A DNA stretch of 64,000 nucleotides from a bacterium (GTDB lineage Bacteria > CG2-30-53-67). The translations under genes were made by a program, and so were the position numbers. The notes beneath the pieces were generated by a model that worked only from the letters and a program-made list of their open reading frames with translations, ran no database searches and was not told where the DNA came from. The stretch is taken from assembly GCA_024277725.1 (NCBI GenBank), contig JAJRUP010000097.1, forward strand, positions 264 through 64,263, written 5' to 3'. Below are positions 6,996 to 64,000 of this stretch, one piece after another; the first letter of the stretch is position 1; every line of letters starts with the position of its first letter.

Positions 6996-8591
6996 TTATT
7001 CTCCGACGATTTCAAACCGGATTTTCCGCAGCACGGCAGAAGCGATTCGGACCCGTCCCGATTCCCCCTGATCGGCGCCGGGGCCAAGCCGTCCACGGAC
7101 GTTCCGGAAGAGTCCCGACCTCTTACACCGGTCCAGAAAGTCATCAAGGACGGACTCACCACCGGAATAATCGTGCAACACGATCCAACCCGACAGTTTC
7201 ATGGAAAAAGGGCCTCTCCCCCCCTGCACCACTAACTGATCGAGAACAACCGGGTCCGGCGTGTACAGACTCAGGGCCGCCAGAACATCCTCAGGAGGAA
7301 TCGAAGCAGGTGCCAGCCCCTGACAGATCGCCCGACGCAACAAACGGTCGGCTTGGGCCTGAAACATCCGGCGAACCCCCTGAAATCGGTCATCCACCTT
7401 GGCATAACCCTGTTGTAATCCACGCACCTCCAGTCGATCATGATGTACCTTCCAGGAAAGCTGCACATAGAGAAAAAGCACCAGGACCGCCGCCGCCGCA
7501 TAGGCGATCTTGGCGACCCGCTGGGCGGATCTTTTCCTCCATCGCAACTGCAGATCCAGGGGAAGGAGATTTGCCGTGGAAAAAATCGATGGACTTTTGG
7601 CCACACCCACAGGAAGATCGTATTCGCCCTCCTCCCGAGGTGCCGGTGCACAGGCAGGGGGGCGAGTCATCCCCGGCAATTCATCGAGGACCGTCAACGG
7701 CAGTTTCAGGTGCCGCTTCAGATCCTCCGCCAGATGGGGCACGTTCCCCCCTTCACCGGTCAACCAGATCTGTTCAATGGATTTCTTGTGTTGCTGCTTC
7801 ACATAGAGAAAGGAGCGATTGATTTCGGTGCAGAGACGTTCGAAAGGATCGTCCCCCTCTCCTGCAATCTCTTCGGCAACGGTGGTGATCTCCATGGCCT
7901 CCCCGCCCTCATGGAGGGGAGTAGATACGTCCACAGCGGACGCCCCTTCGAACTGTGAGAAATCAATCTCTTTCTTGATCATCCGGGAAAACAGAAAATG
8001 TTTGCCCTGAGTCACGATAAGATCAACACCGACGCGGGTGACATGGAGACGGGCCACCGTCTCCTCCGTTCCGAGGATCAAATCGGCCGAAGGAGCGATC
8101 GTCTGTACAAAGGGGATGGTCAGGAGATAATGAGGAACCAGCCCGGCACTCTCCATGAGCGAAACGGCATTCTGCACCGCCTCCACGGGTACCGCCGCTG
8201 CGATCACCTCGATTTTCGGGACCCCTTCCTGACGGTAATGGGTATTGATTTTGTAGACAGTCCGGGTATCCTGACGAACACCGAAGGCTTTGCCGGCCTC
8301 AAAGGGGATCACGGCATCGATTTCCTTTTGTGTCATCTTCGGCAGGGCGAAAGCCCGGTGGAGAATACGGGCATCGTGGAGAACCATGCCGGCGGCCATT
8401 CCGGCAAGGCCGTGGTCGCGGACGGATGCGGCCAATGCCTGCCGAACCGCCTCGGGATGATCCGAAGGCGCCTCAACCCGGAAGAGCCCTTCCAGGCAGG
8501 ACTTCTTTCGCGACCGCCGGAGGACGGCCAGGCGAATCGCATTTCCGCTCACCTCGATACCGACAACCGGTGCTGATGAAAAAAGATTCAC
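6996..8591 (-). CDS. PilM-PilN fusion protein (actin-like ATPase PilM N-domain plus PilN-like TM/periplasmic domain)
   Basis: The N-terminus MNLFSSAPVVGIEVSGNAIRLAV is typical of PilM/FtsA-like proteins. Around residue 340 there is a TM segment (VAKIAYAAAAVLVLFLYVQL) followed by a PilN-like C-terminal region. The total of 531 aa is much longer than a solo PilM. Confidence 0.65.
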   Translation of the reverse strand: MNLFSSAPVVGIEVSGNAIRLAVLRRSRKKSCLEGLFRVEAPSDHPEAVRQALAASVRDHGLAGMAAGMVLHDARILHRAFALPKMTQKEIDAVIPFEAGKAFGVRQDTRTVYKINTHYRQEGVPKIEVIAAAVPVEAVQNAVSLMESAGLVPHYLLTIPFVQTIAPSADLILGTEETVARLHVTRVGVDLIVTQGKHFLFSRMIKKEIDFSQFEGASAVDVSTPLHEGGEAMEITTVAEEIAGEGDDPFERLCTEINRSFLYVKQQHKKSIEQIWLTGEGGNVPHLAEDLKRHLKLPLTVLDELPGMTRPPACAPAPREEGEYDLPVGVAKSPSIFSTANLLPLDLQLRWRKRSAQRVAKIAYAAAAVLVLFLYVQLSWKVHHDRLEVRGLQQGYAKVDDRFQGVRRMFQAQADRLLRRAICQGLAPASIPPEDVLAALSLYTPDPVVLDQLVVQGGRGPFSMKLSGWIVLHDYSGGESVLDDFLDRCKRSGLFRNVRGRLGPGADQGESGRVRIASAVLRKIRFEIVGE

Positions 8592-42046: not shown

Positions 42047-43954
42047 ATGTGCGGTATTGCAGGTCAGATTTCATATAACCACCTCGTGTACTTTGACGAT
42101 ATTCGTTCGATGATCGATGTGATCTTCCACCGCGGACCGGATGATGAGGGTATATACATAAACGAGAAGTCTCCCGGAGAAGCCGTTTCAGGCTCTCTCC
42201 CCTCTGTTGGTCTCGGTCATCGGCGATTGAGCATCATTGACCTTTCAACAGGCCATCAACCCATCCACAACGAGGACAAGAAGACATGGGTCGTCTATAA
42301 TGGTGAAACGTACAATTTCCAGGCCCTGAAAAAGGAACTCATTGCAAAAGGGCACCGCTTCTATACGACAACGGACACGGAAGTCTTGGTCCATCTTTAC
42401 GAAGAATATGGAGAGGATTGTGTACAACACCTCAGGGGAATGTTTTCCTTTGCCTTGTGGGATGAAAATGAGAAGAAGCTTCTGATTGCCAGAGACCGGA
42501 TGGGCAAGAAACCCCTCTATTATAATTGGGACGGCAGCATGCTTCTCTTTGCGTCGGAGTTGAAGTCAATACTTGCTTGTCCTTCCTTTGAAAGAAAACT
42601 TAACCATGGGGCGTTCTTAAGCTTCTTGCTCTACGGCTATGTGCCGGATCCTCAGTCAATCTTTGAGGGGGTGAAGAAATTACCCCCAGCCCATGTGTTG
42701 ACACTGAGTAATAAAGACCTTAAAATCAGAGAATACTGGAGAGCGGATTTTACGCCTCAGGCGTTGGTTGGGGAGGAAGAAGTTTCGGAATTACTCCTTC
42801 AGAAACTTCGTGAGTCCGTGAAAATGCGTCTCATCAGCGATGTTCCCCTGGGCGCCTTTCTCAGCGGGGGGATTGATTCAAGTACAATCGTAGCCCTCAT
42901 GGCGCAGGAAATGACGGAGCCGGTGAAGACCTTTTCGATAGGTTTTGAAGAAGAGGAGTATAACGAGCTTCCCTATGCCAGGAAGGTTGCGGCGATATTC
43001 GGTACGGACCATCATGAGATGGTCATACGCCCGGAAAGTTTTGACCTGATAGAGAAAATCATCCGACATTTTGATGAGCCCTTTGGCGACGAATCGGCGA
43101 TCCCCACCTATTATGTATCCAAACTGGCAAGAGAATACGTAAAGGTTGTCCTGTCCGGTGATGGCGGTGATGAGCTTTTTGCCGGCTACGATAGTTATGC
43201 TGTTACAATGGGGCGGATGAAGTATGAGAGATTACCGGTCATTGCTCGAATGGGGTTACGAGGGCTTTCGCGTATTTTACCGCCTCAGATGTACGGAAAG
43301 AATTTTCTTTACAATATTTCTTTGCCGACCCGAGACCGTTTCATTGATTACGTTTCTCACTTGGCCTTCAACCGTCACGCACAACTTCTATCAAAGGATT
43401 TCCAGGGAGAGATAAAGCAGAGCAGTCTGCTTTTCAAAAAATATTTTGAAGATACCAAATCGTATCACGAATTATCGCAGTTACAATATGTGGATATGAG
43501 AAGCTACTTGCCGGGGGATATTCTGGTAAAAGTGGATCGTATGTCCATGGCCCATTCCCTTGAGACTCGAGTGCCCCTTCTCGATCACCGGGTTGTCGAG
43601 TACGTGAACGGGCTCCCTCCCCGCTATAAGATGAACGGAAAAAGGAGAAAACATATCTTCAAGAAGATTGCCGGGAACCTGCTTCCTACTGAAATCATTG
43701 AGAAAAGGAAAACCGGGTTTGGTGTTCCTTTGAAGTATTGGTTCAAGGGTAATCTTAAGAGCCATATTCGTCAAATTCTGATTGAGCCCAGAACGTGTCA
43801 GAGAGGATACTTCAATACGAGGTATATCGAGGCTCTTCTGGAGGAGCATGATAGAGGTAGAAGGGACCATAGTCGTTTACTTTGGAATCTTGTCGTTTTC
43901 GAACTATGGCATAGACTTTACCTTGACGAACAGGCTTTTAATGGCAGACCATGA
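42047..43954 (+). CDS. Asparagine synthase (glutamine-hydrolysing) family amidotransferase, paralog 1
   Basis: MCGIAG is the N-terminal nucleophile Cys2; SGGIDSS is the PP-loop. Confidence 0.9.
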   Translation: MCGIAGQISYNHLVYFDDIRSMIDVIFHRGPDDEGIYINEKSPGEAVSGSLPSVGLGHRRLSIIDLSTGHQPIHNEDKKTWVVYNGETYNFQALKKELIAKGHRFYTTTDTEVLVHLYEEYGEDCVQHLRGMFSFALWDENEKKLLIARDRMGKKPLYYNWDGSMLLFASELKSILACPSFERKLNHGAFLSFLLYGYVPDPQSIFEGVKKLPPAHVLTLSNKDLKIREYWRADFTPQALVGEEEVSELLLQKLRESVKMRLISDVPLGAFLSGGIDSSTIVALMAQEMTEPVKTFSIGFEEEEYNELPYARKVAAIFGTDHHEMVIRPESFDLIEKIIRHFDEPFGDESAIPTYYVSKLAREYVKVVLSGDGGDELFAGYDSYAVTMGRMKYERLPVIARMGLRGLSRILPPQMYGKNFLYNISLPTRDRFIDYVSHLAFNRHAQLLSKDFQGEIKQSSLLFKKYFEDTKSYHELSQLQYVDMRSYLPGDILVKVDRMSMAHSLETRVPLLDHRVVEYVNGLPPRYKMNGKRRKHIFKKIAGNLLPTEIIEKRKTGFGVPLKYWFKGNLKSHIRQILIEPRTCQRGYFNTRYIEALLEEHDRGRRDHSRLLWNLVVFELWHRLYLDEQAFNGRP

Positions 43955-45576: not shown

Positions 45577-46882
45577 GGTTCTCAACAGGATTGTGTGGGT
45601 AAGTCCAATTTTCCTGCGACGAGATAAATAATGGTTCGATAATATTGGAAACTCTTAAAGCCATAGGCCCTTTTTATTAAGGCGGTTTTAATCTTGCTGT
45701 TAATCCCTTCTACAATACCGTTGGTGATTCGGGATCGCGTGTAGTTGAGCACGCCGTCCCAATGCTTTTTAAGCGTTTTGGCAAACGCAACGACCGGTTC
45801 AAGACGACTATGGGTTGCCCAGTAATACCATTTCTTCAAATAGCGTTCGGCCACTTTCGGATATCGAAAGCTCCAAAGCCGTTGTAGCGCTAATTTGATG
45901 TGATAGGCACGTGATGTTTTCAAGTCCAGGGATTTGAGGTCGGTGATCCGTGCTGTCTGAGTACCACTGAGATTCTCGGGATTTTTCAGCCAAAGATAGC
46001 GGGAACGTTTCAGGAGTTCGGGTTGTTCCTTGGTTTCAGAGCGGCGAACCTCATCGATGGCGCGATTCATCATGGACATGACATGGTAACGGTCGAAGGT
46101 GATTGCAGCATTCGGCAGGTGTTCATGAATCCCTGAAATGTACGCCGGCCACATGTCGCAACAGACTTGCTGAATCTGCTCGACGTTTCCTTTGTGGTCC
46201 TTGAAATCCTGGGCAAATTCCTGAAGAACTTCGGCATGACGATGTTCAGCCACATAAAGCACCCGGGATCTCTCCAGGTCACAAAAGGTCGTGATGTATT
46301 GATGGCCCTTTTGCTTGGAGCATTCATCGATTCCTATGGCAACAACTTTCGAAAGATCCAGATTCTGGCGAGCTTGCTCCACATAATGCATGAGTATTCG
46401 CCAAATACTGTCCGGATGTACGCGAAGTTCTCTCGACAAGGGCAAAACGGGCATCTGCTCAGCTAAATGCAATACAAGGGCCTCAAAGAGCAGAGTAAAG
46501 CCACTTCCCGGCCTGGCCCAGGGGACATGAACCGTTTTCACGCCACAGGTGGGACATTCCATTCTGGGCACTCGGGCATGAAGGAGCGTCTCATATTGAA
46601 AGAAGTCCAGATGTCTCCAGGTGCGTTCTTTGGTATCGTAAACAGGGCGTGACGCTCCCGGGCAGGTCGGGCAGGAGAAACGGCCCCCTTTTTCGAAGTC
46701 GATGAAGATATCAAGCTTTTTGTTTTCAAGATCGAGTTTCACGTCTTTTACTGTCCAGGGGGATAAAAGGCCCAAGGCCAATTCAAGTAACTTTTTGTCT
46801 TGCATGGTGGTATCCTCCTCTTTGTGGGTTGAGGAGAACACATTATCATAAATGGGTTACCCACACAAAACTGTATAGAACC
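45577..46882 (-). mobile_element. ISL3-family insertion sequence (about 1.3 kb) with about 30-bp imperfect terminal inverted repeats and 8-bp target-site duplication TTCTCTTT
   Basis: IR-R is GGTTCTCAACAGGATTGTGTGGGTAAGTCC (45577-45606). IR-L reverse complement is GGTTCTATACAGTTTTGTGTGGGTAACCCA (46853-46882). Direct repeats TTCTCTTT lie at 45569-45576 and 46883-46890. Confidence 0.85.
45582..46841 (-). CDS. ISL3-family DDE transposase
   Basis: N-terminal zinc-finger pairs (FSCPTCPG ... MECPTCGV) and a DDE domain. The likely start is MQDKKLL at about 46805. Confidence 0.8.
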   Translation of the reverse strand: MFSSTHKEEDTTMQDKKLLELALGLLSPWTVKDVKLDLENKKLDIFIDFEKGGRFSCPTCPGASRPVYDTKERTWRHLDFFQYETLLHARVPRMECPTCGVKTVHVPWARPGSGFTLLFEALVLHLAEQMPVLPLSRELRVHPDSIWRILMHYVEQARQNLDLSKVVAIGIDECSKQKGHQYITTFCDLERSRVLYVAEHRHAEVLQEFAQDFKDHKGNVEQIQQVCCDMWPAYISGIHEHLPNAAITFDRYHVMSMMNRAIDEVRRSETKEQPELLKRSRYLWLKNPENLSGTQTARITDLKSLDLKTSRAYHIKLALQRLWSFRYPKVAERYLKKWYYWATHSRLEPVVAFAKTLKKHWDGVLNYTRSRITNGIVEGINSKIKTALIKRAYGFKSFQYYRTIIYLVAGKLDLPTQSC

Positions 46883-47156: not shown

Positions 47157-49037
47157 ATGTGCGGCATTTGCGGGCGAGTTAATCACGACGAAAACCAAGC
47201 CGTCGATGAAGACTTGCTGAAACGAATGACGGCAACGATGGTTTACAGGGGCCCCGATGACCAGGGGTTCTTCCTTCATGGAAATGTCGGTCTGGGTCAT
47301 AGGCGGCTGAGTATTATCGATCTTGACTCGGGGCGACAGCCGATTTTCAATGAGGACAGTTCTGTCTGTGTTGTCTTCAATGGTGAAATCTACAATTACA
47401 AAGAGCTAAGACAGTCTTTGCTGGATAAGGGCCATGCCTTCAGGACCCATTCAGATACGGAGGTCCTGGTACATCTCTACGAAGAGGTTGGAGACATGTT
47501 CGTCCAACAATTGAGAGGAATGTTCTCCATTGCTCTTTGGGATGATCGAGGGAAAAAGCTTGTTCTCGCAAGAGACAGGGTCGGGAAGAAGCCTTTGTAC
47601 TATACCTATCTGGATGAGCAGTGTTTCCTCTTTGGCTCGGAGATCAAGGCGATCCTGGAAGATAAGGAAGTGAGCCGTCAGGTCGATCTCGAAGCACTTG
47701 ACAGTTATCTCAGCCTACTTTATGTGCCGGCTCCTTTGACGATGTTCAGAGGGATAAAAAAGCTGCCTGCCGGACATCTCCTTGTTTTTCAGAATGGCAA
47801 AGTCAATATTAAGAAATACTGGGATCTCCACTTTCAGGAAGACGGGGGGCATAGCGAGAATCATTATATTGAAAGGCTGAGAGAGGTTCTCTACGAAGCG
47901 GTAAGAATAAGGCTTCGCAGCAATGTTCCTTTGGGCGCTTTCTTGAGCGGGGGCATTGATTCAACGGTTGTGGTCTCTATCATGTCCGATCTCCTCGATA
48001 GGCCGGTTACAACATCATCTGTTGGTTTCGAGCTGGAAGGATATAACGAACTCCCCTATGCAAGAGAAGTGGCAGAACAGATTCGCAGCAACCATCGGGA
48101 ATTCACGGTGCAGCCCAATGTTGAGAGCCTAATCTCCGAACTTGTCTGGCACTTTGACGAACCTTTTGCGGATTCCTCTGCCATTCCGACCTATTACGTT
48201 TCTAAGACGACGAGAGAGGCGGTAAAAGTGGCCCTCTCCGGTGACGGTGGCGACGAGATTTTTGCAGGGTATTCCCGTTACTACGTCGACTCCCTGGAGC
48301 AATACCTGAGAAAGGGTTCCAGGTTTATCAAGCCTTATCTGCTTGGCCGTCTCGCAGGAGCGATGCCCGAATGGGTGAAAGGCAGGAATATGATCGGGCA
48401 TTTGGCGCTTGACCCCGCAGAGGCTTATGCCAGAAAACATTCCCACGATCTGTTTAGCCGGGAGGCCAAGAAGCTGCTTTATTCTGGTCCCGTCAGAGAA
48501 GAATTAGCTGATTTTGATGTCTATCAGATATTTAGGGACTATTACGAAGATAACGATGCCACGAATCCTCTGGACAGGGCGCTTTATGTAGATTTGAAGA
48601 CCTATCTTGTTGATGACATTCTGGTCAAAGTGGACAGGATGAGTATGGCAAATTCTCTGGAGGTCAGAGCTCCTCTGTTAGATCATCACGTTATTGAGTT
48701 TATGGCTACACTTCCCCCTTCTTTTAAGATACGTTTTGGGACGAGAAAATATATACTCAAAAAAACCATGTCTCATAAGTTTTCCCGGAGTCTTCTTGCG
48801 AGGAAGAAACACGGTTTTACGGTGCCGCTGGCGGAATGGCTGAGCCATGAACTGAGAGGGATGGTGGAATCCCATATCTTTGATCCCAATGCCCGGTGCA
48901 GAAGCTATTTTGATGTGGGTTATCTTTGGAAGATTTGGTCTGACCACCTCAATGGAGTCAGAGACCACAGTCATATGATCTGGATGGTTCTCATGCTTGA
49001 ATTGTGGCACAGAAGGTTCATTAATGGAGAACAGTAA
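47157..49037 (+). CDS. Asparagine synthase family amidotransferase, paralog 2
   Basis: MCGICG N-terminus; SGGIDST PP-loop. Confidence 0.9.
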   Translation: MCGICGRVNHDENQAVDEDLLKRMTATMVYRGPDDQGFFLHGNVGLGHRRLSIIDLDSGRQPIFNEDSSVCVVFNGEIYNYKELRQSLLDKGHAFRTHSDTEVLVHLYEEVGDMFVQQLRGMFSIALWDDRGKKLVLARDRVGKKPLYYTYLDEQCFLFGSEIKAILEDKEVSRQVDLEALDSYLSLLYVPAPLTMFRGIKKLPAGHLLVFQNGKVNIKKYWDLHFQEDGGHSENHYIERLREVLYEAVRIRLRSNVPLGAFLSGGIDSTVVVSIMSDLLDRPVTTSSVGFELEGYNELPYAREVAEQIRSNHREFTVQPNVESLISELVWHFDEPFADSSAIPTYYVSKTTREAVKVALSGDGGDEIFAGYSRYYVDSLEQYLRKGSRFIKPYLLGRLAGAMPEWVKGRNMIGHLALDPAEAYARKHSHDLFSREAKKLLYSGPVREELADFDVYQIFRDYYEDNDATNPLDRALYVDLKTYLVDDILVKVDRMSMANSLEVRAPLLDHHVIEFMATLPPSFKIRFGTRKYILKKTMSHKFSRSLLARKKHGFTVPLAEWLSHELRGMVESHIFDPNARCRSYFDVGYLWKIWSDHLNGVRDHSHMIWMVLMLELWHRRFINGEQ

Positions 49038-52223: not shown

Positions 52224-54116
52224 ATGTGCGGGATTTGCGGCATATTTCACTTTGAGAAGAGTCGGACGGCCGATGATGGACTCCTTGTGGCAATGAGGGA
52301 TCTGATGGTTCACCGCGGTCCGGACGATGCGGGCCATTATATTGACGGGCCCATCGGACTCGCGCACCGGAGATTGAGTATTATTGACCTTTCCACCGGA
52401 CACCAACCCATGTTCAATGAAGAAGGAACCGTTGCCATTGTCTATAATGGCGAAGTTTATAATTATATAGAGATCAAGAACGAGCTGATCAAGAAAGGAC
52501 ATAATTTCAGGACCCGTTCAGATACCGAAGTCATCATACACGCTTACGAAGAATTTGGTGAACAATGTGTCGAAAAGTTTAGAGGGATGTTTGCCTTCGC
52601 TCTCTGGGATAAGCGGAATGAAAAGGTTCTCATCGTCCTGGACAGGCTTGGTATTAAGCCACTTTTCTATACGGAGGTTGACGGGACGCTCGTTTTTGCC
52701 TCTGAGATCAAATCGATCCTTCTTTATCCGGGGATTGAGAGGGCGCTCGACTTCGAGAGCCTCGACCTGTACCTCAGTCTCAGGTATGTTCCAGGGCCCC
52801 TGACGATGTTTCATAACATCTTCAAGCTCCTTCCGGGTCATATGATGGTGGCAACTCCTGAGGGGACTGAAATCAGGAAGTACTGGGACGTTGAATTTAC
52901 CCCATCCGATACCGTTCTCGGAGAAACCCATCTGGAAGAGTTCCGTGAGATCCTTGAGGAGTCGATCCGGATACGCTTGAGAAGTGACGTTCCTCTTGGG
53001 GTCTTTCTGAGCGGAGGTGTTGACTCCAGTTCCGTGGTGGCCCTGATGAGTCAAATGGTTTCGGCACCGATCAAAACCTTTTCCGTAGGATATCCGGAAA
53101 AGATGGCAGATAATGAATTCGACTTTGCCCGCCGGGTCGCGGATCGCTTTCACACCGACCATCATGAATTCCGACTTTCCCCCGTTGATTTCCTCGACTT
53201 CATCCCGAAGCTGGTATGGCACCTGGACGAGCCCGTTGCCGATTCCTCCACCATTCCCCTCTATTATATTTCCAAGCTGGCCCGGGAGTTTGTCACCGTG
53301 ATTCTCTCCGGGGAAGGGGCGGACGAAATCCTTGCGGGGTATTACATCTATAAGAAAATGCTCGGAATTGAAAAACTGAGGAACCTACCGCTGTTCCCCC
53401 TGGTGGCCGGTTTGATGACTTTGGTCAGACCCCTCCTTAGACATCAGAAGCTTGCGAAGTACGCGGAACTCATCCGGCACCCAATTGAGGAGAGATATCT
53501 CGGTGTTTCCTCTGTGTTCTCCGATGGGGCGAAGAAAGACCTCTACGCGGCCAATGAAAACGGGCTTCGTGACCGAAGTGTCCATCAATTTCTTCAGCCC
53601 TACTACGAAAAAACGAGACACTGTGACTTGTTGAATAGAACGCTCTATCTCGACCTGAAGGTCTGGCTCCCGGACGATCTTCTCATGAAAGCCGATAAGA
53701 TGACCATGGCCACATCCATGGAGCTTAGAGTTCCCTTTCTCGACCATCGACTTGTCGAGTTTGCGGCGACATTGCCGACGGAAGGAAAACTTCAGAACGG
53801 TGAATCGAAATACATTTTGAAGAAACTGATGAGCGCCTATCTTCCGGAGTCCATCCTTTTTCGAAAAAAGAAGGGATTCCCGGTCCCGATCCAGCGATGG
53901 TTTCAGTCGGACCTGCAGAAAAATCTTAAAGAAACTCTCCTGGACAGCGGAAGCGCCTGTCTGAATTTTTTTAAGAGGGAGCAAATCAGCCGGCTCATAG
54001 CCCTTCACGAGGCGGGACGGGGGGACTACAGCGACCACCTGTGGACGCTTCTGGTCTTTGAATACTGGCACAAGATGTTTATCGAGGGAACCCTCACGGG
54101 AGGGGCCCATGCTTAG
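52224..54116 (+). CDS. Asparagine synthase family amidotransferase, paralog 3
   Basis: MCGICG N-terminus; SGGVDSS PP-loop. Confidence 0.9.
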   Translation: MCGICGIFHFEKSRTADDGLLVAMRDLMVHRGPDDAGHYIDGPIGLAHRRLSIIDLSTGHQPMFNEEGTVAIVYNGEVYNYIEIKNELIKKGHNFRTRSDTEVIIHAYEEFGEQCVEKFRGMFAFALWDKRNEKVLIVLDRLGIKPLFYTEVDGTLVFASEIKSILLYPGIERALDFESLDLYLSLRYVPGPLTMFHNIFKLLPGHMMVATPEGTEIRKYWDVEFTPSDTVLGETHLEEFREILEESIRIRLRSDVPLGVFLSGGVDSSSVVALMSQMVSAPIKTFSVGYPEKMADNEFDFARRVADRFHTDHHEFRLSPVDFLDFIPKLVWHLDEPVADSSTIPLYYISKLAREFVTVILSGEGADEILAGYYIYKKMLGIEKLRNLPLFPLVAGLMTLVRPLLRHQKLAKYAELIRHPIEERYLGVSSVFSDGAKKDLYAANENGLRDRSVHQFLQPYYEKTRHCDLLNRTLYLDLKVWLPDDLLMKADKMTMATSMELRVPFLDHRLVEFAATLPTEGKLQNGESKYILKKLMSAYLPESILFRKKKGFPVPIQRWFQSDLQKNLKETLLDSGSACLNFFKREQISRLIALHEAGRGDYSDHLWTLLVFEYWHKMFIEGTLTGGAHA

Positions 54117-56185: not shown

Positions 56186-57556
56186 TCAAGGATTGACCGT
56201 AGGTGGCGCAAGCCACGGTGTTGCAGGAGCCATAGCATCCCCTGAGCCTCCGCCTGCCCCCGGCACTTTAAGGATAAAAACGTCGTGTCTGTTGCCGGTT
56301 TGGTGCTCCCAATCACTAGTGAACATCACGAACTTCCCATCAAAGCTCACGTTTCCCTGTGGGTATTCCCAATAGTTATCGGCATTGCTACGGTGGTGTG
56401 CCAGGCGTTGAACGTGCGTGGTATTTTTGTCTGTCCATACTTTCATAATTTCTCCTTGCCACGGACCATTCACTACTTGGCCTCCAATCAGAAAAGTAGT
56501 GACAATGATAGAAGATTAATCTGTGGGAAAAGCACTTGTATATCCTTCCTGTGCTGATCCTCCACCAGTTGGAGGAAGCATCATATAGTACCAATTTGTG
56601 TCAGCGTTGCTGGTTAAATCCCTTGCAATGACATGCCGAGTATCTCCGTTATATGCGTCAACTTGGTATAATTTCCCATCTCCTATAGCCCTGTGACCTA
56701 CCCCCCTGTCAGTAGCGTCATAATCTATTCTCGTTATCGTATTTGTAGCGAACTTCCATAGATACCAAGGCGAACCCGCACCCTGGGCCGCAAGAACGTA
56801 TTTCCCAGACTTATCAATCATTATGGCATGAAGAGAGCTGAACCCTTGCGCGGCGAAGTCGTGCGTCCACGTTTTGTCTGTAGAACGTTGATAGACCTTA
56901 GCTACAGTAGTATTGCCGGCAGGGCCATCAAGAAAGGCAAAATAGTCGTTGTCGGCGCTCATGGTCATGTAGTCCATCCAGGAGCCGAACGCCTTTATCA
57001 GTGTCCATGTATTATTGCTTGGGCTATAAGGAGCGCTTAGGTCAAGATCGACTTGATATAAGTTGGTTGAATTACTGCCATACCCAAACCCATAAATTCT
57101 GTTGGGATGATCAGACCCTCTATGCCATTGCATCGTATCATCTTGTAAGCCTGTCCCTCCGCCCCACATGGAAGTTTGTGCGGCATTCAAACGTTGAATA
57201 GCAAGAGTAGTAGGGTTAAATGTATACAGCGATACGGCAGCCGGAGAAGATGAATTGTATTTTATCCAGAACGCTGTCGAATTCCAGTTGAAAGCAGGCC
57301 AAAAAGACGCATATAAATGACAGTTGTCATTTCCATCATTCTGGTCTGTGACTCTTAAGATTGTCGTACCGAATGTGGGATCGGTAAAGGTTTTTCCCGC
57401 AGCCGGTAACGTTGGCAAGGACGGTGGAGGGCAGACCTTCGTGCTGTTCAGTGCCGCACATCCAGGATCCAGGGCAATGGCGGGCCCCGGCTCGCCAAGG
57501 AAGAAAGAAAAGACGAATAAGGAACTCATCAATAATCTGCTTGCGATCTTTCTCAT
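56186..57556 (-). CDS. Secreted beta-propeller protein (oligogalacturonide-lyase-like family), interrupted by an in-frame TAA at 56516-56518
   Basis: Signal peptide MRKIASRLLMSSLFVFSFFLG, with a GGAGG RBS before this Met. ORFs 56516-57589 and 56186-56473 are in the same frame, separated by a single TAA. The downstream segment continues the propeller-like sequence (NADNYWEYPQGNVSFDGKFVMFTSDWEH). Confidence 0.55.
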
Positions 57557-57656
57557 TATCAAATACCTCCAAAACTTGATGCTATGCATTAATTTCCAGA
57601 TAGCCTTCTCAAGAAGTGAGTCGGTATTAGCTTCTGGCTATTCATCCTGATCCCAA

Positions 57657-57869: not shown

Positions 57870-59531
57870 TTAAGACGAAATCAATCCCACTGCGTTTCGC
57901 ATGATTGCTAAGACATCTCCCGTATCAATGATACCATCCGGCGCAGGGGCTCCGCCTACCAACGGCGCAACATCTCCATGGACAAACTGCTGTACGGAAG
58001 GCGAATAAGTTCCGATAACAATGCGCAGGGCCAGAAGTGCATCCGCTATGTCCACGGTGCCGTCCAGGTTGATGTCTCCATCAGGAAGATCGCTTCCCCC
58101 TTCGTTTCCCTGCCGATCCACCGAAGAGATGGTGTAGTATCCGGGCTGGGAGGTGTCGGCCAGCCAGTCCAGGTAGGTGGTGGTTCCCACCGGTACCGAG
58201 GCGATCCGGTATCTCCGATCCACCGGCGGGGCGCCGGTCGCCGAATAGTAGATGTTGTAATACCGGATTTTGGAGTTGTTCGGCTCCGACCAGGACAGGC
58301 GGTACGGCCCTCCGGCGGAGATGGTAAAGCTGGAGGGGGTCGGCGCCGGCGGTGGGGTGGTCCAGAATCCCGTTTTTCCCTCTGGAGCATATTGCGAATC
58401 CGTAAGATTGCCGTTCCCATCCAGGGTCACCCGCCGGACCTCGGATAGCCTACGGCTTTCCAGGCGGCTGTACTCTTCCGAGGTGACGGCGTAATACACG
58501 GTCGTATTGTTGGTTTGGGGGGTGTCGTAGGACTCGGTGGCCACAGCATCGGCCGTTAGCTCCGTCCACCCCGTCTCCCCGTCCGGGCTCGCCCAGACAT
58601 GGTATCCCTTGATCTCCTCGGCCCCAGGGGGCGGGTCCGTGGCCTCATCGGGCCAGCCCCGCGTGGTGTAGGAGGGGCGCTCCCACGTGAGGTGCACCAG
58701 GGATCCGTTTTTGGAAACCCTCACGTTTACAGAGGGATGGGGATAGTAGACAACGGCCCAGCAGATATAGGGGAAACGGTCGCCGTTGTTGTTCAACCAG
58801 ACCGCCTGGAACGCCACCTTGGTGCCGTCCGGCGACTGACTGGGCCTCGGATAGCTGTTGTAGTTTCCGGCGTAGCCCGGGTAGTGCATATCCGCGATCT
58901 GGAAGGCATTCTTGTAGGAATCCGTATACTTGTTCGCCATGAGGAAGAGGGTATAGGGATTTACGCCGATCACGTAGTCGGTCCATCCGGTCCAGGAGTG
59001 GTGCTGGCCGTCATACTTGTTATACGCCAGCACATAATTGGGCTCCAAGGCGTTGGTTTTCATGTTGTAGATCCTGGTCCCGGGCTTGGGATTGTCGGTG
59101 TAGGTTCCTACCAGGGCGTACTTGCCCCAGCGGTCGAACACGGGATGGCCGAAGTAAGGGGTGCCGTAGGGATTGGCCGTGGGCCGCTGTGTAGAGAAGA
59201 AGCCCACTCGGGATCCGTCGTAAGACCAGACGTTGGTGCCATGTTCCTTGGAGTAGATCTCCTCCTGGTCCGGTGCATGAACCAGGACCCACACCTCGTG
59301 TCCCGTGGTCAGATCCTGGTAAGCCAGGGTCTCGGGCTGCCAGATATAGTGGTTTGACGGGTCCTCGAGCTGGGTGGTGGGCCACCCGTTTGTCCCGTAG
59401 CAGGTTTTTCTCGCGACTGCTTCCTCGAGGTTCTCGTTTGCCGCAAGGGCCTGGATCGTCGTGAGGAGAAGGATGACTGAAACGAGAGTAAACAGTTTTG
59501 CTGCCTGCGAAGAAATATCGGTGATTTTCAT
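57870..59531 (-). CDS. Secreted beta-propeller (oligogalacturonide-lyase-like) + FN3-like protein with C-terminal dockerin-like module
   Basis: Signal peptide MKITDISSQAAKLFTLVSVILLLTTIQALA (Met 96 of the track ORF). TolB-like PDG repeats (SQSPDGTKVAF, ASPDGETGW). The C-terminus DGDINLDGTVDIADALLALRI ... PDGIIDTGDVLAIMRNAVGL is dockerin-like. Confidence 0.7.
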   Translation of the reverse strand: MKITDISSQAAKLFTLVSVILLLTTIQALAANENLEEAVARKTCYGTNGWPTTQLEDPSNHYIWQPETLAYQDLTTGHEVWVLVHAPDQEEIYSKEHGTNVWSYDGSRVGFFSTQRPTANPYGTPYFGHPVFDRWGKYALVGTYTDNPKPGTRIYNMKTNALEPNYVLAYNKYDGQHHSWTGWTDYVIGVNPYTLFLMANKYTDSYKNAFQIADMHYPGYAGNYNSYPRPSQSPDGTKVAFQAVWLNNNGDRFPYICWAVVYYPHPSVNVRVSKNGSLVHLTWERPSYTTRGWPDEATDPPPGAEEIKGYHVWASPDGETGWTELTADAVATESYDTPQTNNTTVYYAVTSEEYSRLESRRLSEVRRVTLDGNGNLTDSQYAPEGKTGFWTTPPPAPTPSSFTISAGGPYRLSWSEPNNSKIRYYNIYYSATGAPPVDRRYRIASVPVGTTTYLDWLADTSQPGYYTISSVDRQGNEGGSDLPDGDINLDGTVDIADALLALRIVIGTYSPSVQQFVHGDVAPLVGGAPAPDGIIDTGDVLAIMRNAVGLISS

Positions 59532-59710
59532 GGTCTTTCTTCCTGCTTGGCTGCCGTGTCCTAATGGTGACCGGGGCAGCGTGACGTCTGGCTTCCTTCC
59601 CAACAGTCTTTCCTGACCCCGGAGCCCCCGGGGTGCTGAAATCGGCCCATAACAGGTGGAGAGACCGGGTTGTTCCTCTCCGGAGCGAGGCCGCTTGCTT
59701 TTTTCGGGTC

Positions 59711-62044
59711 CTACACCCTCCCCGAAGGTCTTTTCCTCCGGCAGGCCGTGAAGACCGGAGGCAGCAGGACCCACCAGAGATCCAAGGGGTTGCCCGGCCG
59801 GCGTGACAGCGCGCATCCCCCGCCTCCTCCGCCCCCGGAGGAACCCGGGTCTCCGCCGCCGTTCACCGTGTCCGACACCGAGGCGGCCTGGGGAATCCCC
59901 ACGTAGCCGGGGTCCGAGATCAGGCCGTTGGTCATGCCGTCATCGTCCCCGGTCCCGCCGTCGGCGAGGGCAAAAGATATTTGATTGCCGCTCACCTGGG
60001 AGGTGAGTTTCCGAAACCCGTTGTTGTCGTCGTACTTCCAGTACTCGGCATCGTCAGGCAGAACGTCCGGCATCACAATGGTTACCAATACGATTTCGCC
60101 GACCGAAATGCCTGCAATCTGATATTCAACTCCGCCGTAGGGAAAACTCACATTCGGCTGACTTCCGCTTGAAACAACGGTCTCAATAAATTCGGTTTGA
60201 GCCAGTCTCGCCGTCGGATGGTTGATGACCACGGACATCTTCCCCTGCGGAGTCGCCATGGTTGCCGCTTGGTTATCCACCCGATCGAGAGTTCCATCCT
60301 GATCGGAATCTACGCCATCTTCATCAAGATCGGAAACTCCGTCATCGTCTGAGTCCGTATCCAATGCATCGACAACACCGTCCGCATCGGTATCTGCCGG
60401 GGTGTCGGAGGAGCCCCACTCCGCCAAGTCAGAGGCATCATCATGATCGCTATCCGACAAATTCGGGTTGAGTCCGTAGGTCGTCTCATCAATATTCAAA
60501 ATTCCATCCATGTCCTGATCGCCGGTGGGGCCGTCTGCATCATCCATGTCGATATAGTTGAGTGCTCCGTCCTTGTCTGCGTCATTGGTCCCCTCGGCAA
60601 CATCCGGTTTCCCGTCGTTGTCGGAATCGAGATCAAGGGCGTCAATCGTTCCGTCGGCATCGGTATCGATCGGAGCATCCCCGGCCCCCCATTCGACAAA
60701 GTCGGAGATTCCGTCGCCGTCGGAATCGGTGACCCCCGGATTCAGTCCGTAAGCAAATTCTTGCCCATTCGTCAGTCCATCTTCATCCGAATCCATTTCC
60801 GGATCATAAACGGTAATTGTTTTTTCAACGGTCGTTTCTCCCCCATCATTATCGGTCACACGGAGAGAGACTGTGAAACGGCCCGACGTGGCAAAGATAT
60901 GCGAAGGGTTAGCAGTATATGAAGAAGACTGGTCGCCGAAGTCCCAGACATATCGGGTGACCGTCCCGTCACTGTCGCTTGCGTTCGCCGTGAAATTTAT
61001 CGTCAAAGGCATTAATCCGCTCGTTGTATCGGCTGAGATTGAGGCAGTCGGCAACACATTGGGCCGATCCGTCACGACAATCGAGACAGAGGCAATATCC
61101 GTCGCTCCCTGGTCATCGGTGACCGTCAACGTCGCCGTATAGGTGCCGGACGCTGTATAGGTATGTGTCGGAGCTGCACCGGATCCGCTGTCCCCATCGC
61201 CGAAGCTCCAGGCATAGGAATCAATCGTCCCATCCGTATCGATCCCCAGACCGTAGAACCGGACGGAGAGTGGAGCCTCCCCCTGCGTGGGCGTGGCGCT
61301 TGCCGAGGCGGTCGGCGGAGCATTGCCCGGAGACGCCGCCTGCTCCACAACGACCCGGACCGTATCCGTACTGCTCGCCTGCCCGTCGCTCACGGTCAAC
61401 TGGAAAACCAGGGTCTGGCCGGAGAGGGCGGAGGTGAGCGAAAAAAACGGTGTGGCCGTAGTACTCCCCAAGAGATTCACCGTCCCGCCGGAGATCTCTA
61501 CCCACGAATATGTCAGGCTGTCCCCGTCCGGATCGGAACTCCCGCTCCCGTCGAGGTTGATCTGGATACTCCCTCCCGACAGTTGCGATTGTGCAACCGT
61601 CTGGTCCGAACCGGCCGAGGCCGTGGGGGCATGGTTGACCGCTGCCGTTTCCGTGACCGTCACCTCATTGGAATAACCGCTCTCGTTTCCGCTTGTGTCA
61701 TAGGAGGTAACCGCAAGATGGTAGGTAACATCTGCCGTCAGGCCGGAGAGGACGAATTCCGGATTCGCCGGGTCGGAAAGGGATGTCACCGTGACCGAGA
61801 TCGGGGAATCCCCCTCTGTAAGGCCCGTGCCGTTGTAGGGAGCGCCCGCACCGTCCGTATCATAATAGAGCCTGTACCCGGCAAGATCGGTACAGACGCT
61901 TCCATCCGAGTTGGTCGTCGTTTGATCCCAGAAAACCGTTACGGAGGCCTCGGCAAACCCTGCACTGATGAATAATACCATGAAACAAAGGATCAAAGTA
62001 ATCAAATATTGACTTCGGATTGTCCTCATTTGAAAAGCTTTCAT
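59711..62044 (-). CDS. Secreted FN3 / PKD-domain / thrombospondin-type-3 Ca-binding-repeat protein with C-terminal Gly-run/Cys - TM - RRKR tail (putative sorting signal)
   Basis: Signal peptide; PKD motifs (WSFGDGDSGSGAAPTHTYTASGTYTATLTVTDDQGA, WDFGDQSSSYTANPSHIFATSGRFTVSLRVTDNDG). About 12 DxDxDG TSP3-like repeats. C-terminal GGGGGGGCALSRRPGNPLDLWWVLLPPVFTACRRKRPSGRV. Confidence 0.75.
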   Translation of the reverse strand: MKAFQMRTIRSQYLITLILCFMVLFISAGFAEASVTVFWDQTTTNSDGSVCTDLAGYRLYYDTDGAGAPYNGTGLTEGDSPISVTVTSLSDPANPEFVLSGLTADVTYHLAVTSYDTSGNESGYSNEVTVTETAAVNHAPTASAGSDQTVAQSQLSGGSIQINLDGSGSSDPDGDSLTYSWVEISGGTVNLLGSTTATPFFSLTSALSGQTLVFQLTVSDGQASSTDTVRVVVEQAASPGNAPPTASASATPTQGEAPLSVRFYGLGIDTDGTIDSYAWSFGDGDSGSGAAPTHTYTASGTYTATLTVTDDQGATDIASVSIVVTDRPNVLPTASISADTTSGLMPLTINFTANASDSDGTVTRYVWDFGDQSSSYTANPSHIFATSGRFTVSLRVTDNDGGETTVEKTITVYDPEMDSDEDGLTNGQEFAYGLNPGVTDSDGDGISDFVEWGAGDAPIDTDADGTIDALDLDSDNDGKPDVAEGTNDADKDGALNYIDMDDADGPTGDQDMDGILNIDETTYGLNPNLSDSDHDDASDLAEWGSSDTPADTDADGVVDALDTDSDDDGVSDLDEDGVDSDQDGTLDRVDNQAATMATPQGKMSVVINHPTARLAQTEFIETVVSSGSQPNVSFPYGGVEYQIAGISVGEIVLVTIVMPDVLPDDAEYWKYDDNNGFRKLTSQVSGNQISFALADGGTGDDDGMTNGLISDPGYVGIPQAASVSDTVNGGGDPGSSGGGGGGGCALSRRPGNPLDLWWVLLPPVFTACRRKRPSGRV

Positions 62045-62057
62045 AAGTCTACCTCAC

Positions 62058-62093
62058 TACAAAAAAAGGCCGCCAGAAAAAATCCTCTGGCGG
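62058..62093 (-). terminator. Intrinsic-terminator-like hairpin plus U7 immediately upstream of the RBS of the PKD/TSP3 gene (putative riboswitch expression platform)
   Basis: Minus-strand RNA GGCCGCCAGAGGAUUUUUUCUGGCGGCC followed by UUUUUUU, then GUAGUGAGGUAGACUUAUG (RBS and start). Confidence 0.6.
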
Positions 62094-62139
62094 CCCGGCT
62101 GACATAGATGCAGTCATCAGATCACGGGAATCAGGTTAC

Positions 62140-62256
62140 AGGGAAAGTCCAATCATTCAACCGATCCTGTTGCCTGTTTCCCAACGACTGGTTGCTGCCT
62201 CTTTAGTCCCGAAGCTCTGCGCCCCCCGGTTTCCCGAGGTTTGCTCTGAGCAAAGG
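62140..62256 (-). promoter_or_regulatory. Candidate c-di-GMP-I (GEMM) riboswitch aptamer in the 5' leader of the PKD/TSP3 gene
   Basis: Minus-strand RNA: ..CUCAGAGCAAACC-UCGGGAAACCGGGG-GGCGCAGAGCU-UCGGGACUAAAGAGGCAGC... Compare the Vc2 aptamer ..CACAGGGCAAACC-[P1 hairpin with GAAA loop]-GGACGCAAAGCC-UCCGGCCUAAACC.. The GCAAACC box, a GNRA (GAAA) capped P1, a GGCGCAGAGC box and a CUAAAG receptor-like element are all present. Confidence 0.45.
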
Positions 62257-62484
62257 AAAAGTTTTTTATTTCAATATCTTACATGTCCTTTTCTCCACAA
62301 AAAAACCCAGCATACCGAAAAAGGCATCCTGGGTAAAAAACCTCGGGCATTATGCTGCCCACTATTTTACCACTTCGGGAGGTTATGACCGACCTTCTGT
62401 TCAAGGCCTCACAACTCTGCGACCCGGCTCTTCCAAGCCGGGCTGCCTTTATCGGTGGTTCTATACTAAACATTACCCTCACTC

Positions 62485-62512
62485 GTCAAAAATGTCAATG
62501 TCAATTTTTGAC
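62485..62512. promoter_or_regulatory. Perfect 9-bp inverted repeat GTCAAAAAT-N10-ATTTTTGAC (operator-like)
   Basis: Seen directly in the sequence. The spacer gtcaatgtca itself repeats GTCAA. Confidence 0.4.
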
Positions 62513-63066
62513 ACCTTGAGTCGAATCCAAATGCAAGGAGAATGCCAAACTATCGCTTAAACCCTTTTGTTTTCAAAACCCCTTTATTTCCCATATGTTG
62601 TATGGCTTACAATATGTCCATACAAAATCTGGAGAGAAATGCCAACAATTTATGCATGTTTTCTTGTACAATTTGCAGGAAAGACCGTATCGGATTAGAT
62701 ACGTTTGCAATCTTTGAGAAGAGTGCCGCAATAGGGATGAATCAGCATAACTCATAAATTGTATACAGAAGAAAAATAGTGTCTTTCCGTTGGACTCTAC
62801 CTGCTAAACTATGCCATAATGGCCCTACATTCCTTATGATCATAATGGTTTCAGCAATATTTCCCGGTTTTCTCACATTTATTTTCATCCCTGGGAGATC
62901 GATCCGGATCAGCCCCGGCAGGCGGTCAACGCGGTGACCCGGTTCCGGCACTACCACAACCTGGACCGGATGGAAGAAAAGATCGAAAGATTGTTAAACG
63001 AATTTTCCTTCACGACTATTTCCGAGTTGTTGCATCCCCTGTTTCCCGGTGTTTGCAACAGCTTGA

Positions 63067-64000
63067 ATGAAACCGAGTCCCGAAATGATTCTTGATGCAC
63101 TCTTAACGTTGAGTTTGATAATCACCGGCATTGTCTGTATCCTCCTGTTATCACAACGGAATAAAGGATTGCCGCTTCGAACCTTAGGACAAACAGCAGG
63201 CTTACATGCCGCATGGATTTTCGGTTTGCTCATTTTTGCACGCCGATCGCTGCCATTTCTGCATTTGCTGCCACTCCGGATCGTCCTCTCCATCTTATCG
63301 ATGACCTTCTATACTTCTGTGTTGTCTTCTTTCCATATCGTCCGGTTTCGCGAGCCTTTGCTGCCGGAATTTCAAAAAGTTTCAACCTTTTTTGCAGCCC
63401 TTATGGCGTCCATTTTCGGACTGCTGTCCCTCCATCCAAGTCTACTCAGCACCCTCGACTTTACGATCGATCAACACATGGAACTTCGTTTCGGGCCCGC
63501 CGGCTATTATTTCAGTTGCGCCATGATTCTTTGCCAGTTGATCGTTCTGTTTCAGATGGAACAGGTTTACCGATCTTCTTCGACGGCACAGCGGATTCGA
63601 CTCAAATTCATGATTCTTGGAATCAGCTGCCAAAGCCTTTATCTCCTTTTCTTGGGGGGGCAGATCCTCTTAATGCATTCGCTGGTCATCGACTATCTGC
63701 ATTCAGCCGCCGTTGTAACGACACTCTGCTGGTCCATGATTCTCTGGGCCATCCTGCGTCATCGATTGTTTCTCACGGATCTTTATATTTCTCAACAGAT
63801 CACCTTTTCCTCCGTTGCCCTTTTCGGCATTGGGACTTATCTTCTGATTGCAGGCACCATCGGCTTTTTCATCCGAAAACAACCCAGCGAATGGCATCTG
63901 CTCTTCATCATCATCTACGTGGCCCTGACCATCATCCTCTTCGCCATGCTTCTCTATTCCCCGGTCCTGCAGCGGCGGATCAAACATTTTATCCATACCC
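63067..64000 (+). CDS. Polytopic membrane protein, 3' end beyond window (possibly the membrane sensing domain of a histidine kinase such as PrsK); not in the supplied ORF track because no stop is reached
   Basis: Open frame from ATG 63067 (or 63085) to the window end, about 310 codons with 8 or more hydrophobic helices (ILDALLTLSLIITGIVCILLL, IFGLLIFARR..., ILGISCQSLYLLFLGG...). Confidence 0.45.
   Translation, partial: MKPSPEMILDALLTLSLIITGIVCILLLSQRNKGLPLRTLGQTAGLHAAWIFGLLIFARRSLPFLHLLPLRIVLSILSMTFYTSVLSSFHIVRFREPLLPEFQKVSTFFAALMASIFGLLSLHPSLLSTLDFTIDQHMELRFGPAGYYFSCAMILCQLIVLFQMEQVYRSSSTAQRIRLKFMILGISCQSLYLLFLGGQILLMHSLVIDYLHSAAVVTTLCWSMILWAILRHRLFLTDLYISQQITFSSVALFGIGTYLLIAGTIGFFIRKQPSEWHLLFIIIYVALTIILFAMLLYSPVLQRRIKHFIHT

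Follow-up and report, generated by a model that had tools for sequence, protein, structure and literature searches.

The 64-kb window analysed here, which is the whole stretch of 64,000 nucleotides (nt) taken from contig JAJRUP010000097.1, carries on its minus strand a gene for a secreted protein of 777 residues with PKD repeats, and it is the 5' leader of this gene that concerns us. Two aptamers lie one after the other in this leader, each followed by its own intrinsic terminator (62334-62299 and 62096-62061, respectively), and the composite is kept in at least seven distinct loci. The downstream aptamer, module 2, belongs to the GEMM-I family and has an A in the column where aptamers specific for cyclic di-GMP (c-di-GMP) have a G; the upstream one, module 1, is a GEMM-I-like structure that has G in the same column. 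The reading that we favour, and hold to be probably correct, is that module 2 acts as an ON switch of GEMM-Ib type and module 1 as an OFF switch, the two forming a two-module leader for the PKD-repeat gene within an XrtA/PEP-CTERM exopolysaccharide locus. An initial annotation of this DNA had flagged the span 62058-62262 as a single c-di-GMP riboswitch; the flagged span is real, but the second, upstream module with its own terminator was missed. The comparisons below draw upon a whole-leader alignment of the window with loci L025, L026, L027/28 and L029, to which a metagenome pattern scan added L032/L035, L033, L034 and L036.

The flagged aptamer and its terminator

In the covariance-model search that the initial annotation had suggested, Rfam family RF01051 (c-di-GMP-I) matched positions 62255..62086 of the minus strand at 50.9 bits (gathering threshold 35; E = 5.3e-7 for the whole 64-kb window). 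This match spans all model positions 1-87 and is the only one at gathering level in the 64 kb; the resemblance of module 2 to GEMM-I is far beyond chance. The model for c-di-GMP-II (RF01786), likewise run, gave nothing even at E <= 10, and the remaining Rfam families returned only noise over 61000-64000. The parts of the element are the following, P1 to P3 being helices and J1/2 a junction strand.

62083..62257, minus strand: module 2, GEMM-I aptamer of A20 (GEMM-Ib) type (Rfam, covariation, orthologues)
62257-62251 / 62089-62083, minus strand: P1, UCCUUUG / CAGAGGA, 7 bp
62245, minus strand: A20-equivalent, within J1/2 (CUCAGA)
62244..62219, minus strand: P2, with a GAAA loop at 62233-62230
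62218 and 62090, minus strand: A47-equivalent and C92-equivalent, both canonical in the Rfam alignment
62215-62206 / 62103-62093, minus strand: base of P3
62104..62205, minus strand: distal extension of P3, hypervariable, folding as an irregular hairpin of 102 nt with tetraloop-receptor-like CUAAAG/CUAUG at its base (length comparison, folding)
62061..62096, minus strand: intrinsic terminator of module 2, a stem of 13 bp, of which 10 form a perfect GC-rich core, followed by U7 (terminator scan, folding)

The conserved GEMM-I boxes (GAGCAAACC at 62246..62238 and GGCGCAGAGCU at 62223..62213), the hairpin CUCGG-GAAA-CCGGGG (62238..62224) and the element CUAAAG (62206..62201) all lie on the minus strand where the initial annotation had seen them. 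The last of these had been assigned to the next hairpin; the element is indeed present, but that small local hairpin gives way to the base of a P3 arm of about 124 nt, the 3' strand of which (CUAUG..GUCAGCCGGGC, 62107..62093) is found 100 nt downstream, beyond the 102-nt extension. With CUAUG at 62107-62103 and the GNRA tetraloop (GAAA) on P2, module 2 of the window possesses the tetraloop and receptor pair characteristic of type 1 GEMM; L032 has a degenerate receptor and L036 none.

When eight related loci were aligned with the distal P3 masked, the 24 core pairs (7 bp in P1, 8 bp in P2 and 9 bp at the base of P3) were standard-paired in 100% of the 192 cells, three of them with compensatory changes, and slid controls fell to 30-50%. 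Module 2 is a genuine, conserved aptamer of the GEMM-I family, as the initial annotation had proposed: the Rfam match and the covariation agree with a foldable P1/P2/P3 architecture. Orthologous copies score 58.0, 40.2 and 51.1 bits with RF01051; in L027 and L028 the aptamer is present and its sequence aligns fully, yet no match at gathering level was obtained, probably owing to a bulge in P2 and the long insertion. An alternative P1 register resembling that of Vc2 (G62246-C62089 onward, 4 bp with mismatches) was rejected in favour of the 7-bp register, which pairs in 100% of the cells and agrees with the layout of the Rfam GGC-variant consensus, namely a J1/2 of 6 nt and a J3/1 of 2 nt.

The Rfam alignment closes P3 over an unaligned insertion of 87 nt. 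The length of the distal part ranges between 40 and 102 nt among the loci, every version folding as a long hairpin. The inserts of L032 and L033 are unrelated to each other, sharing short words of the GATCAC/CGACAC kind, while their flanks are identical at 380/381 and 257/258 positions; such a pattern suggests that a cassette was replaced, or that the two divergent copies underwent gene conversion.

The terminator has a perfect 10-bp stem, GGCCGCCAGA (62095..62086) with UCUGGCGGCC (62077..62068), followed by U7 (62067..62061); the stem ends 12 nt and the U-tract 5 nt before the ribosome-binding site (RBS), in line with the terminator-type expression platform of the initial annotation. Its 5' arm, GGGCCGCCAGAGG (62096-62084), is made up of five bases from the end of the P3 3' strand, G62091, the C92-equivalent C62090 and six of the seven bases in the P1 3' strand; its overlap with the aptamer amounts to 14 nt (62096-62083). 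Because this arm consists of aptamer 3' strands, aptamer and terminator are mutually exclusive. Folding of the leader with and without the aptamer constraint gave a minimum free energy (MFE) structure of full length that forms the terminator, at -84.4 kcal/mol, versus -65.4 kcal/mol with P1 enforced. The terminator fold is favoured energetically; therefore, the decision would have to be kinetic, ligand captured during transcription blocking the terminator. The same layout is known from the cGAMP (cyclic GMP-AMP) ON switch upstream of pilM in Geobacter metallireducens, in which the terminator sequesters C75 (PMC9262584). From the overlap between the terminator 5' arm and the aptamer 3' strands we infer that module 2 is an ON-type switch: once ligand is bound, P1 and P3 would hold the strand needed for the 5' arm, and RNA polymerase would read into the gene. 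The initial annotation had recognised the layout of a termination switch, correctly, while leaving its polarity open between OFF and ON; the strand overlap points to ON.

The upstream module

Module 1 lies outside the flagged span, about 110 nt upstream of module 2 and preceded by a promoter region that is conserved.

62369..62459, minus strand: module 1 aptamer, a divergent GEMM-I-like three-helix junction of 91 nt (covariation, RNAalifold, sub-threshold Rfam matches, own model R1)
within it, minus strand: P1, ACCAC(CG)/(CG)AAGUGGU
62447, minus strand: G of the position-20 column, in J1/2 (AUAAAG)
62446..62419, minus strand: P2, a hairpin with GNRA loop
62415..62382, minus strand: P3, with an invariant GG bulge
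between P3 and P1, minus strand: J3/1, CUCC
62345..62360, minus strand: linker hairpin (GGGCAG..UGCCC) with an A-run and a U-run on either side, its stem covarying
62299..62334, minus strand: intrinsic terminator of module 1 (ACCCAGGAUGCC / GGUAUGCUGGGU plus U7), stem 62334..62305 (terminator fold)

Its junction strands, CGAUAAAG, AGA(G) and CUCCCGAA, are nearly invariant and its helices covary: 97.4% of the cells are paired over 29 pairs, seven of which show compensatory changes, none of 500 shuffles reaches the score, and slid controls give 30-48%. RNAalifold concurs with the three-helix fold. An open reading frame (ORF) of 67 residues overlapping this region (62279..62482, minus strand) was considered and dismissed as non-coding, given the RNA-type covariation, the invariant junctions and the absence of codon-pattern variation.

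The best Rfam matches of module 1 all belong to the c-di-GMP-I clan (CL00126) and are full-length, but fall below gathering: 20 bits with RF03167 for the window copy (gathering 59), and with RF01051 (gathering 35) 29.0 bits for L034 and 21.6 bits for the second copy of L033 (L033b). In these sub-threshold alignments G62447, A62418 and the conserved CC of J3/1 fall in the columns of G20, A47 and C92. A covariance model built from module 1, R1, recovered twelve copies at 95-118 bits, among them those of another tandem leader that L033/L035 carry in divergent orientation, and weakly cross-detected one module-2 aptamer (19.8 bits, E = 3.5e-4); a CGCAGAG box is common to both modules. Since the Rfam scores are sub-gathering, the tetraloop receptor is missing, the internal loop of P2 is 2x2 instead of 3x3 and J3/1 is longer, we describe module 1 as GEMM-I-like and do not file it as a GEMM-I member.

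As to its terminator, the hairpin at 62361..62344 followed by U6 was rejected, for the U-run is unconserved and pairs with the preceding A-run; this linker stem varies to GGGUG/CACCC in L027 and AGGCGU/ACGCCU in L032. In the MFE fold the module 1 aptamer, the linker hairpin and the terminator further downstream coexist. When the transcript is cut before the 3' arm of the terminator, another fold appears in most loci, in which AAAGGCA (J1/2 and the first bases of P2) pairs with UGCCUUU of the terminator and GGUAAAA (P1 3' strand and A-run) pairs with UUUUACC at the terminator foot. In all eight loci compared (8/8), the 5' segment of the aptamer, ACCGAUAAAGGCA (62456..62444), is complementary to the terminator apex, UGCCUUUUUCGGU (62326..62314). 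The duplex of ACCGAUAAAGGCA with UGCCUUUUUCGGU has a predicted dG of -16.7 to -22.5 kcal/mol over these loci; shuffled terminators give -7 to -10, and no more than 6 in 300 of them equal the real one. This complementarity takes in the terminator loop, which the hairpin itself leaves unconstrained, and it follows sequence change, reading ACCAU:AUGGU in L034 and CACCG:CGGUG in L032 and L033b. The two states lie close together in energy: for the window, the computed values are -68.4 kcal/mol for aptamer plus terminator and -65.7 kcal/mol for the antiterminator, and from locus to locus the gap varies between about -4 and +9 kcal/mol.

Because the 5' strand is complementary to its own terminator apex, module 1 is predicted to be an OFF switch whose antiterminator is built from that strand. 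Without ligand, the 5' strand (P1 5' strand, J1/2 and the start of P2) would pair with the terminator apex, and the P1 3' strand plus A-run with the U-run and ACC at the terminator foot, both of which would prevent termination; with ligand bound, these strands would be locked in the aptamer and the terminator would form. Module 1 is an independent regulatory module, because it stands alone before a different gene in L034 (1015-1197, minus strand), where only module 1 and its terminator are present, with an RBS and ORF within about 20 nt of the terminator. The gene that follows there encodes a membrane/coiled-coil protein (MILRNLIIWPSYPML...) of at least 338 residues, which runs off the locus. 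On the 1215-nt contig of L036, an anti-aptamer-like CUGCCUCUAUCG is kept although module 1 has no recognisable terminator there; a strong RBS and an ATG-TAA start-stop come next.

Probable ligands and logic of the tandem leader

What, then, would the two modules sense? The base of module 2 aligned to G20 of Vc2, which is model position 11 of RF01051 (an unpaired G directly before G-C/C-G pairs), is A62245, and this A is invariant in 9/9 copies. The numbering follows the sequences of Vc2 and Gs1761, with a cross-check against the Rfam consensus only. Of the two ligand guanines bound by Vc2, G-alpha is recognised by G20 and G-beta pairs with C92, whereas cGAMP riboswitches have A for G20 (A14 of Gs1761). 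The substitution defines the cGAMP-binding GEMM-Ib subclass (PMC6140456, PMC9481103) and, according to Sherlock et al., the same G/A position predicts specificity (PMC9481103); in-line probing has shown that an A-variant of Desulfobacca acetoxidans (Thermodesulfobacteriota) gains affinity for c-AMP-GMP (PMC9481103). In the sequence signature of GEMM-Ib taken from PMC6140456 and PMC9481103, A20 is combined with retained equivalents of A47 and C92, and module 2 has all three (A62245, A62218 and C62090); it departs from the c-di-GMP-specific Vc2 type, in which a G at position 20 contacts G-alpha. The initial annotation had equated its box ending in GAGCAAACC with GGGCAAACC of Vc2 and concluded for c-di-GMP. 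Because A in the G20 column defines GEMM-Ib, the label of c-di-GMP riboswitch is probably wrong, or incomplete, for module 2; the most likely ligand, judging from the sequence, is 3',3'-cGAMP, possibly with cross-binding of c-di-GMP. A change of this kind at a ligand-contact position alters the probable second messenger for a surface protein and an exopolysaccharide locus. The same A-type aptamer, with a short P3, lies in L036 ahead of a c-type cytochrome-like protein that has a signal peptide and two CxxCH haem motifs in 94 residues. Geobacter GEMM-Ib riboswitches are found upstream of cytochrome, pilus and polysaccharide genes (PMC6456294), and the haem-protein context of L036 agrees with a cGAMP-type regulon because the Geobacter regulon includes cytochrome and polysaccharide genes.

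The composite of both modules is found in the window, in L025-L029, in L032/33/35 and in L036, and occurs twice, divergently, in L033. In every locus the difference between G in module 1 and A in module 2 at the position-20 column is strictly kept. The two full tandem leaders of L033 (6650-7010, minus strand, and 7933-8400, plus strand), seen also in L035, face apart and drive paralogous secreted proteins that share an N-terminal 'WQPSTTNADGTPCTDLAGYKIYYDTD' domain.

Taken in series, the two switches would yield full-length mRNA only if ligand 2, probably cGAMP, is present and ligand 1, possibly c-di-GMP, is absent, that is, a gate of the form NOT A AND B. It is because the G/A difference is strictly kept between the modules that we entertain, tentatively and at less than even chance, a more specific reading of the gate as 'cGAMP AND NOT c-di-GMP': the leader would tell c-di-GMP from 3',3'-cGAMP, the G20-type OFF module imposing a veto at high c-di-GMP and the A20-type ON module giving permission with cGAMP.

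Other explanations have to be weighed against the two-module reading. We regard as unlikely the view that the PKD gene is governed by one conventional GEMM-I switch specific for c-di-GMP, with no part played by the sequence upstream. In its favour are the name of the matched Rfam family (c-di-GMP-I), the canonical equivalents of A47 and C92, the ability of some A20 aptamers to bind c-di-GMP well (PMC6140456) and the common control of adhesin and matrix genes by c-di-GMP. Against it, A stands in the position-20 column of every copy, when it is the wild-type G20 that discriminates against cGAMP (PMC6140456), and the module upstream shows strong conservation and covariation and has a terminator of its own, oriented with the same transcript. 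We give still less credence to a band-pass or pulse filter, in which both modules would sense the same or an overlapping cyclic dinucleotide with opposite polarity; the shared CGCAGAG box and the same or related fold speak for it, as does the bispecificity that A20 aptamers can show (PMC6140456), yet the G-versus-A difference maintained at a ligand-contact column in every locus is hard to explain with one ligand.

The same low probability attaches to the proposal that module 1 senses no metabolite and only happens to precede the true riboswitch, being either a gene for a small RNA, complete with promoter and terminator, or a leader bound by protein or RNA. A sigma70-like promoter does lie immediately upstream, with a strong terminator about 165 nt later, and the Rfam gathering thresholds are not reached; against this, module 1 always lies in sense, with a gene or module 2 directly after it, its terminator in L034 is close to the RBS and ORF already described, and invariant junctions around covarying helices, together with a conserved alternative between aptamer and antiterminator, are typical riboswitch anatomy. 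Chance resemblance, with the hairpins representing the Rho-independent terminator of an upstream transcript, would appeal to nothing but the generic abundance of GC hairpins; it is negligible in probability and effectively refuted by the E value of the Rfam match, by nine conserved copies with compensatory changes and by the lack of any upstream gene on the minus strand, the neighbouring gene being divergent.

The evidence for the two-module reading needs itself to be qualified, for several points weigh against it. The polarity of module 1 depends upon thermodynamic predictions, and a long-range pairing over about 125 nt must beat the P1 formed earlier; in L036, moreover, module 1 is without a recognisable terminator. 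Scores below Rfam gathering in all copies, the lack of a tetraloop receptor and of the AAA/GAC internal loop, and the longer J3/1 mean that the pocket and the ligand of module 1 may differ from those of any GEMM-I. The sequences compared are only 8-9 distinct and fairly close ones, and the P1 helices show no double compensatory changes. With regard to module 2, A20 aptamers range from about 1,000-fold selectivity for cGAMP to bispecificity, so c-di-GMP could still be a physiological ligand; the Vc2 G20A mutant binds both ligands, as do several natural A-type members (PMC6140456; PMC5888326). Finally, a simple motif scan of the 64-kb window alone found no synthase gene for cGAMP or c-di-GMP, no GG[DE]EF motif occurring there in a long open frame.

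On its own, the flagged aptamer would be one more member of a well-studied riboswitch family; what sets the locus apart is the divergent upstream module and the heterotypic tandem. Module 1 appears to be a structurally slimmed, previously unrecognised relative of GEMM-I, having no tetraloop receptor, a reduced internal loop and an unusual antiterminator formed by the 5' strand. A G-type OFF and an A-type ON module in series would be a compact natural way to distinguish c-di-GMP from cGAMP, and would compensate within the RNA itself for the known tendency of A20 aptamers to cross-react with c-di-GMP, such that matrix, adhesin and cytochrome genes are on only in the state 'cGAMP AND NOT c-di-GMP'. 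How bacteria insulate the two pathways is an open question that this leader makes directly testable. The cGAMP riboswitches characterised so far come mainly from Geobacter; if the specific gate holds, the antagonism between cGAMP and c-di-GMP would extend past this genus to uncultured Thermodesulfobacteriota-like bacteria.

Genomic setting and known systems

The features surrounding the two modules are as follows.

62532..62547, minus strand: sigma54-type -24/-12 box TGGCATTCTCCTTGCA, candidate promoter of the whole leader (pattern scan, conservation)
62470..62513, minus strand: palindrome TGTCAAAAATTGACA, overlapped by TTGACA repeats and almost without change in five loci
62498-62493 and 62475-62470, minus strand: sigma70-like -35 (TTGACA) and -10 (TAATGT) with a 17-nt spacer, just before module 1
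59711..62055, minus strand: RBS GAGG (62055-62052), ATG at 62044 and the 777-residue secreted PKD-repeat protein (Pfam, translation)

The sigma54-type box is the sole match to TGGCAYN5TTGCW in the 64 kb, where 0.04 are expected, and it is kept in L025, L026, L027, L029 and L036; this suggests enhancer-dependent transcription of PrsK/PrsR type feeding into the riboswitches. The palindromic region could be an operator or a second promoter.

The position of module 2 directly before the 777-residue PKD gene was already part of the initial annotation, and Pfam confirms the domains (PKD_4 at 2.5e-41, PKD and K319L-like_PKD) in a protein with a signal peptide and Asp-rich repeats. The RBS and N-terminus are conserved in its orthologues; the start in the public annotation lies 21 codons downstream of this conserved RBS and ATG. 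At the C-terminus (59711-59830, minus strand) the tail GGGGGGGC-ALSRRPGNPLDLWWVLLPPVFTAC-RRKRPSGRV is closer to a MYXO-CTERM-like sorting signal with Cys than to a PEP-CTERM motif, despite the XrtA-type locus. No close relative of the protein was found in a species-representative genome set, which returned only unrelated PKD-domain proteins, while a large protein collection contained orthologues at 54-78% identity. Their contigs are syntenic: a PrsK-like histidine kinase, divergent in orientation, and a polysaccharide deacetylase are followed, about 870 nt further on, by the PKD gene. Two ORFs downstream of the latter, of 648 and 357 residues (57870-59816 and 56516-57589, minus strand), have no Pfam or NCBIfam match and may be co-transcribed and co-regulated with it.

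The window as a whole constitutes an XrtA/PEP-CTERM exopolysaccharide locus, with PrsT, PrsK, three XrtA-system amidotransferases, glycosyltransferases of stp2/stp3 type, an O-antigen-ligase-like protein and WecB. The three amidotransferase genes (asparagine-synthase-like) are paralogous and lie within 12 kb (42047-43954, 47157-49037 and 52224-54116, plus strand), and a transposase gene of the ISL3 family lies within the cluster (45582-46841, minus strand; NCBIfam 363.7 bits). The 'Geobacter-like' host of the initial annotation is not established: the nearest named relatives of the housekeeping protein WecB are from Thermodesulfobacteriota (70%) and metagenome-assembled genomes of Syntrophales, all at <=70% identity.

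With respect to known systems, module 2 shares with RF01051 aptamers of Vc2 type the GCAAACC and CGCA.AG boxes, the GAAA tetraloop with its CUAA/UAUG receptor and the equivalents of A47 and C92, and differs from them in having A for G20, an A.C mismatch in place of A-U at the base of P3 and a large insertion in P3. Module 1 of the window resembles the c-di-GMP-I-GGC family (RF03167) in its cg/AAAGGCA 5' junction, its CCGAAG 3' end and a P1 with an AA bulge; nevertheless it reaches just 20 bits, has A instead of G at the position-47 column, and has another P3 and no AAA/GAC loop.

The GEMM-Ib riboswitches of Geobacter (Gs1761/pgcA, Gm0970 and pilM) have in common with module 2 the GEMM-I fold, A at G20 and a GNRA tetraloop on P2, as well as transcriptional ON control, predicted here, by a terminator that overlaps the aptamer 3' strand and sequesters the ligand-pairing C (C75 in pilM, 62090 here). 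Their regulon likewise comprises surface, polysaccharide and cytochrome genes, and tandems are possible in both. In contrast, the present host is not Geobacter, P3 has a hypervariable extension of 40-102 nt, J1/2 reads CUCAGA, selectivity is predicted from sequence, and the tandem partner is a different, G-type module instead of a second GEMM-Ib. Tandem GEMM-Ib aptamers of Geobacter sulfurreducens, for example upstream of GSU2885 omcAHG, show termination at each aptamer (PMC6456294) and resemble our case in having two GEMM-type aptamers in one leader; they are described as homotypic and both ON, whereas the modules described here differ in details of the fold, in the base at position 20 and in predicted polarity.

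The logic-gate tables of a survey of tandem riboswitches (PMC9481103) contain no c-di-GMP/cGAMP pair of G-type and A-type with opposite polarity. Breaker's group has described gates of identical form in D. acetoxidans, in which an adenosylcobalamin riboswitch (OFF) is followed by one for c-AMP-GMP or c-di-GMP-I (ON), giving NOT A AND B (PMC9481103). As in those gates, the present leader has two complete riboswitches in series with their own terminators, predicted to be OFF and then ON, and the second is an A-variant of GEMM-I; the difference is that here the first module, too, resembles GEMM and has G at position 20, which would allow cyclic dinucleotides as both inputs.

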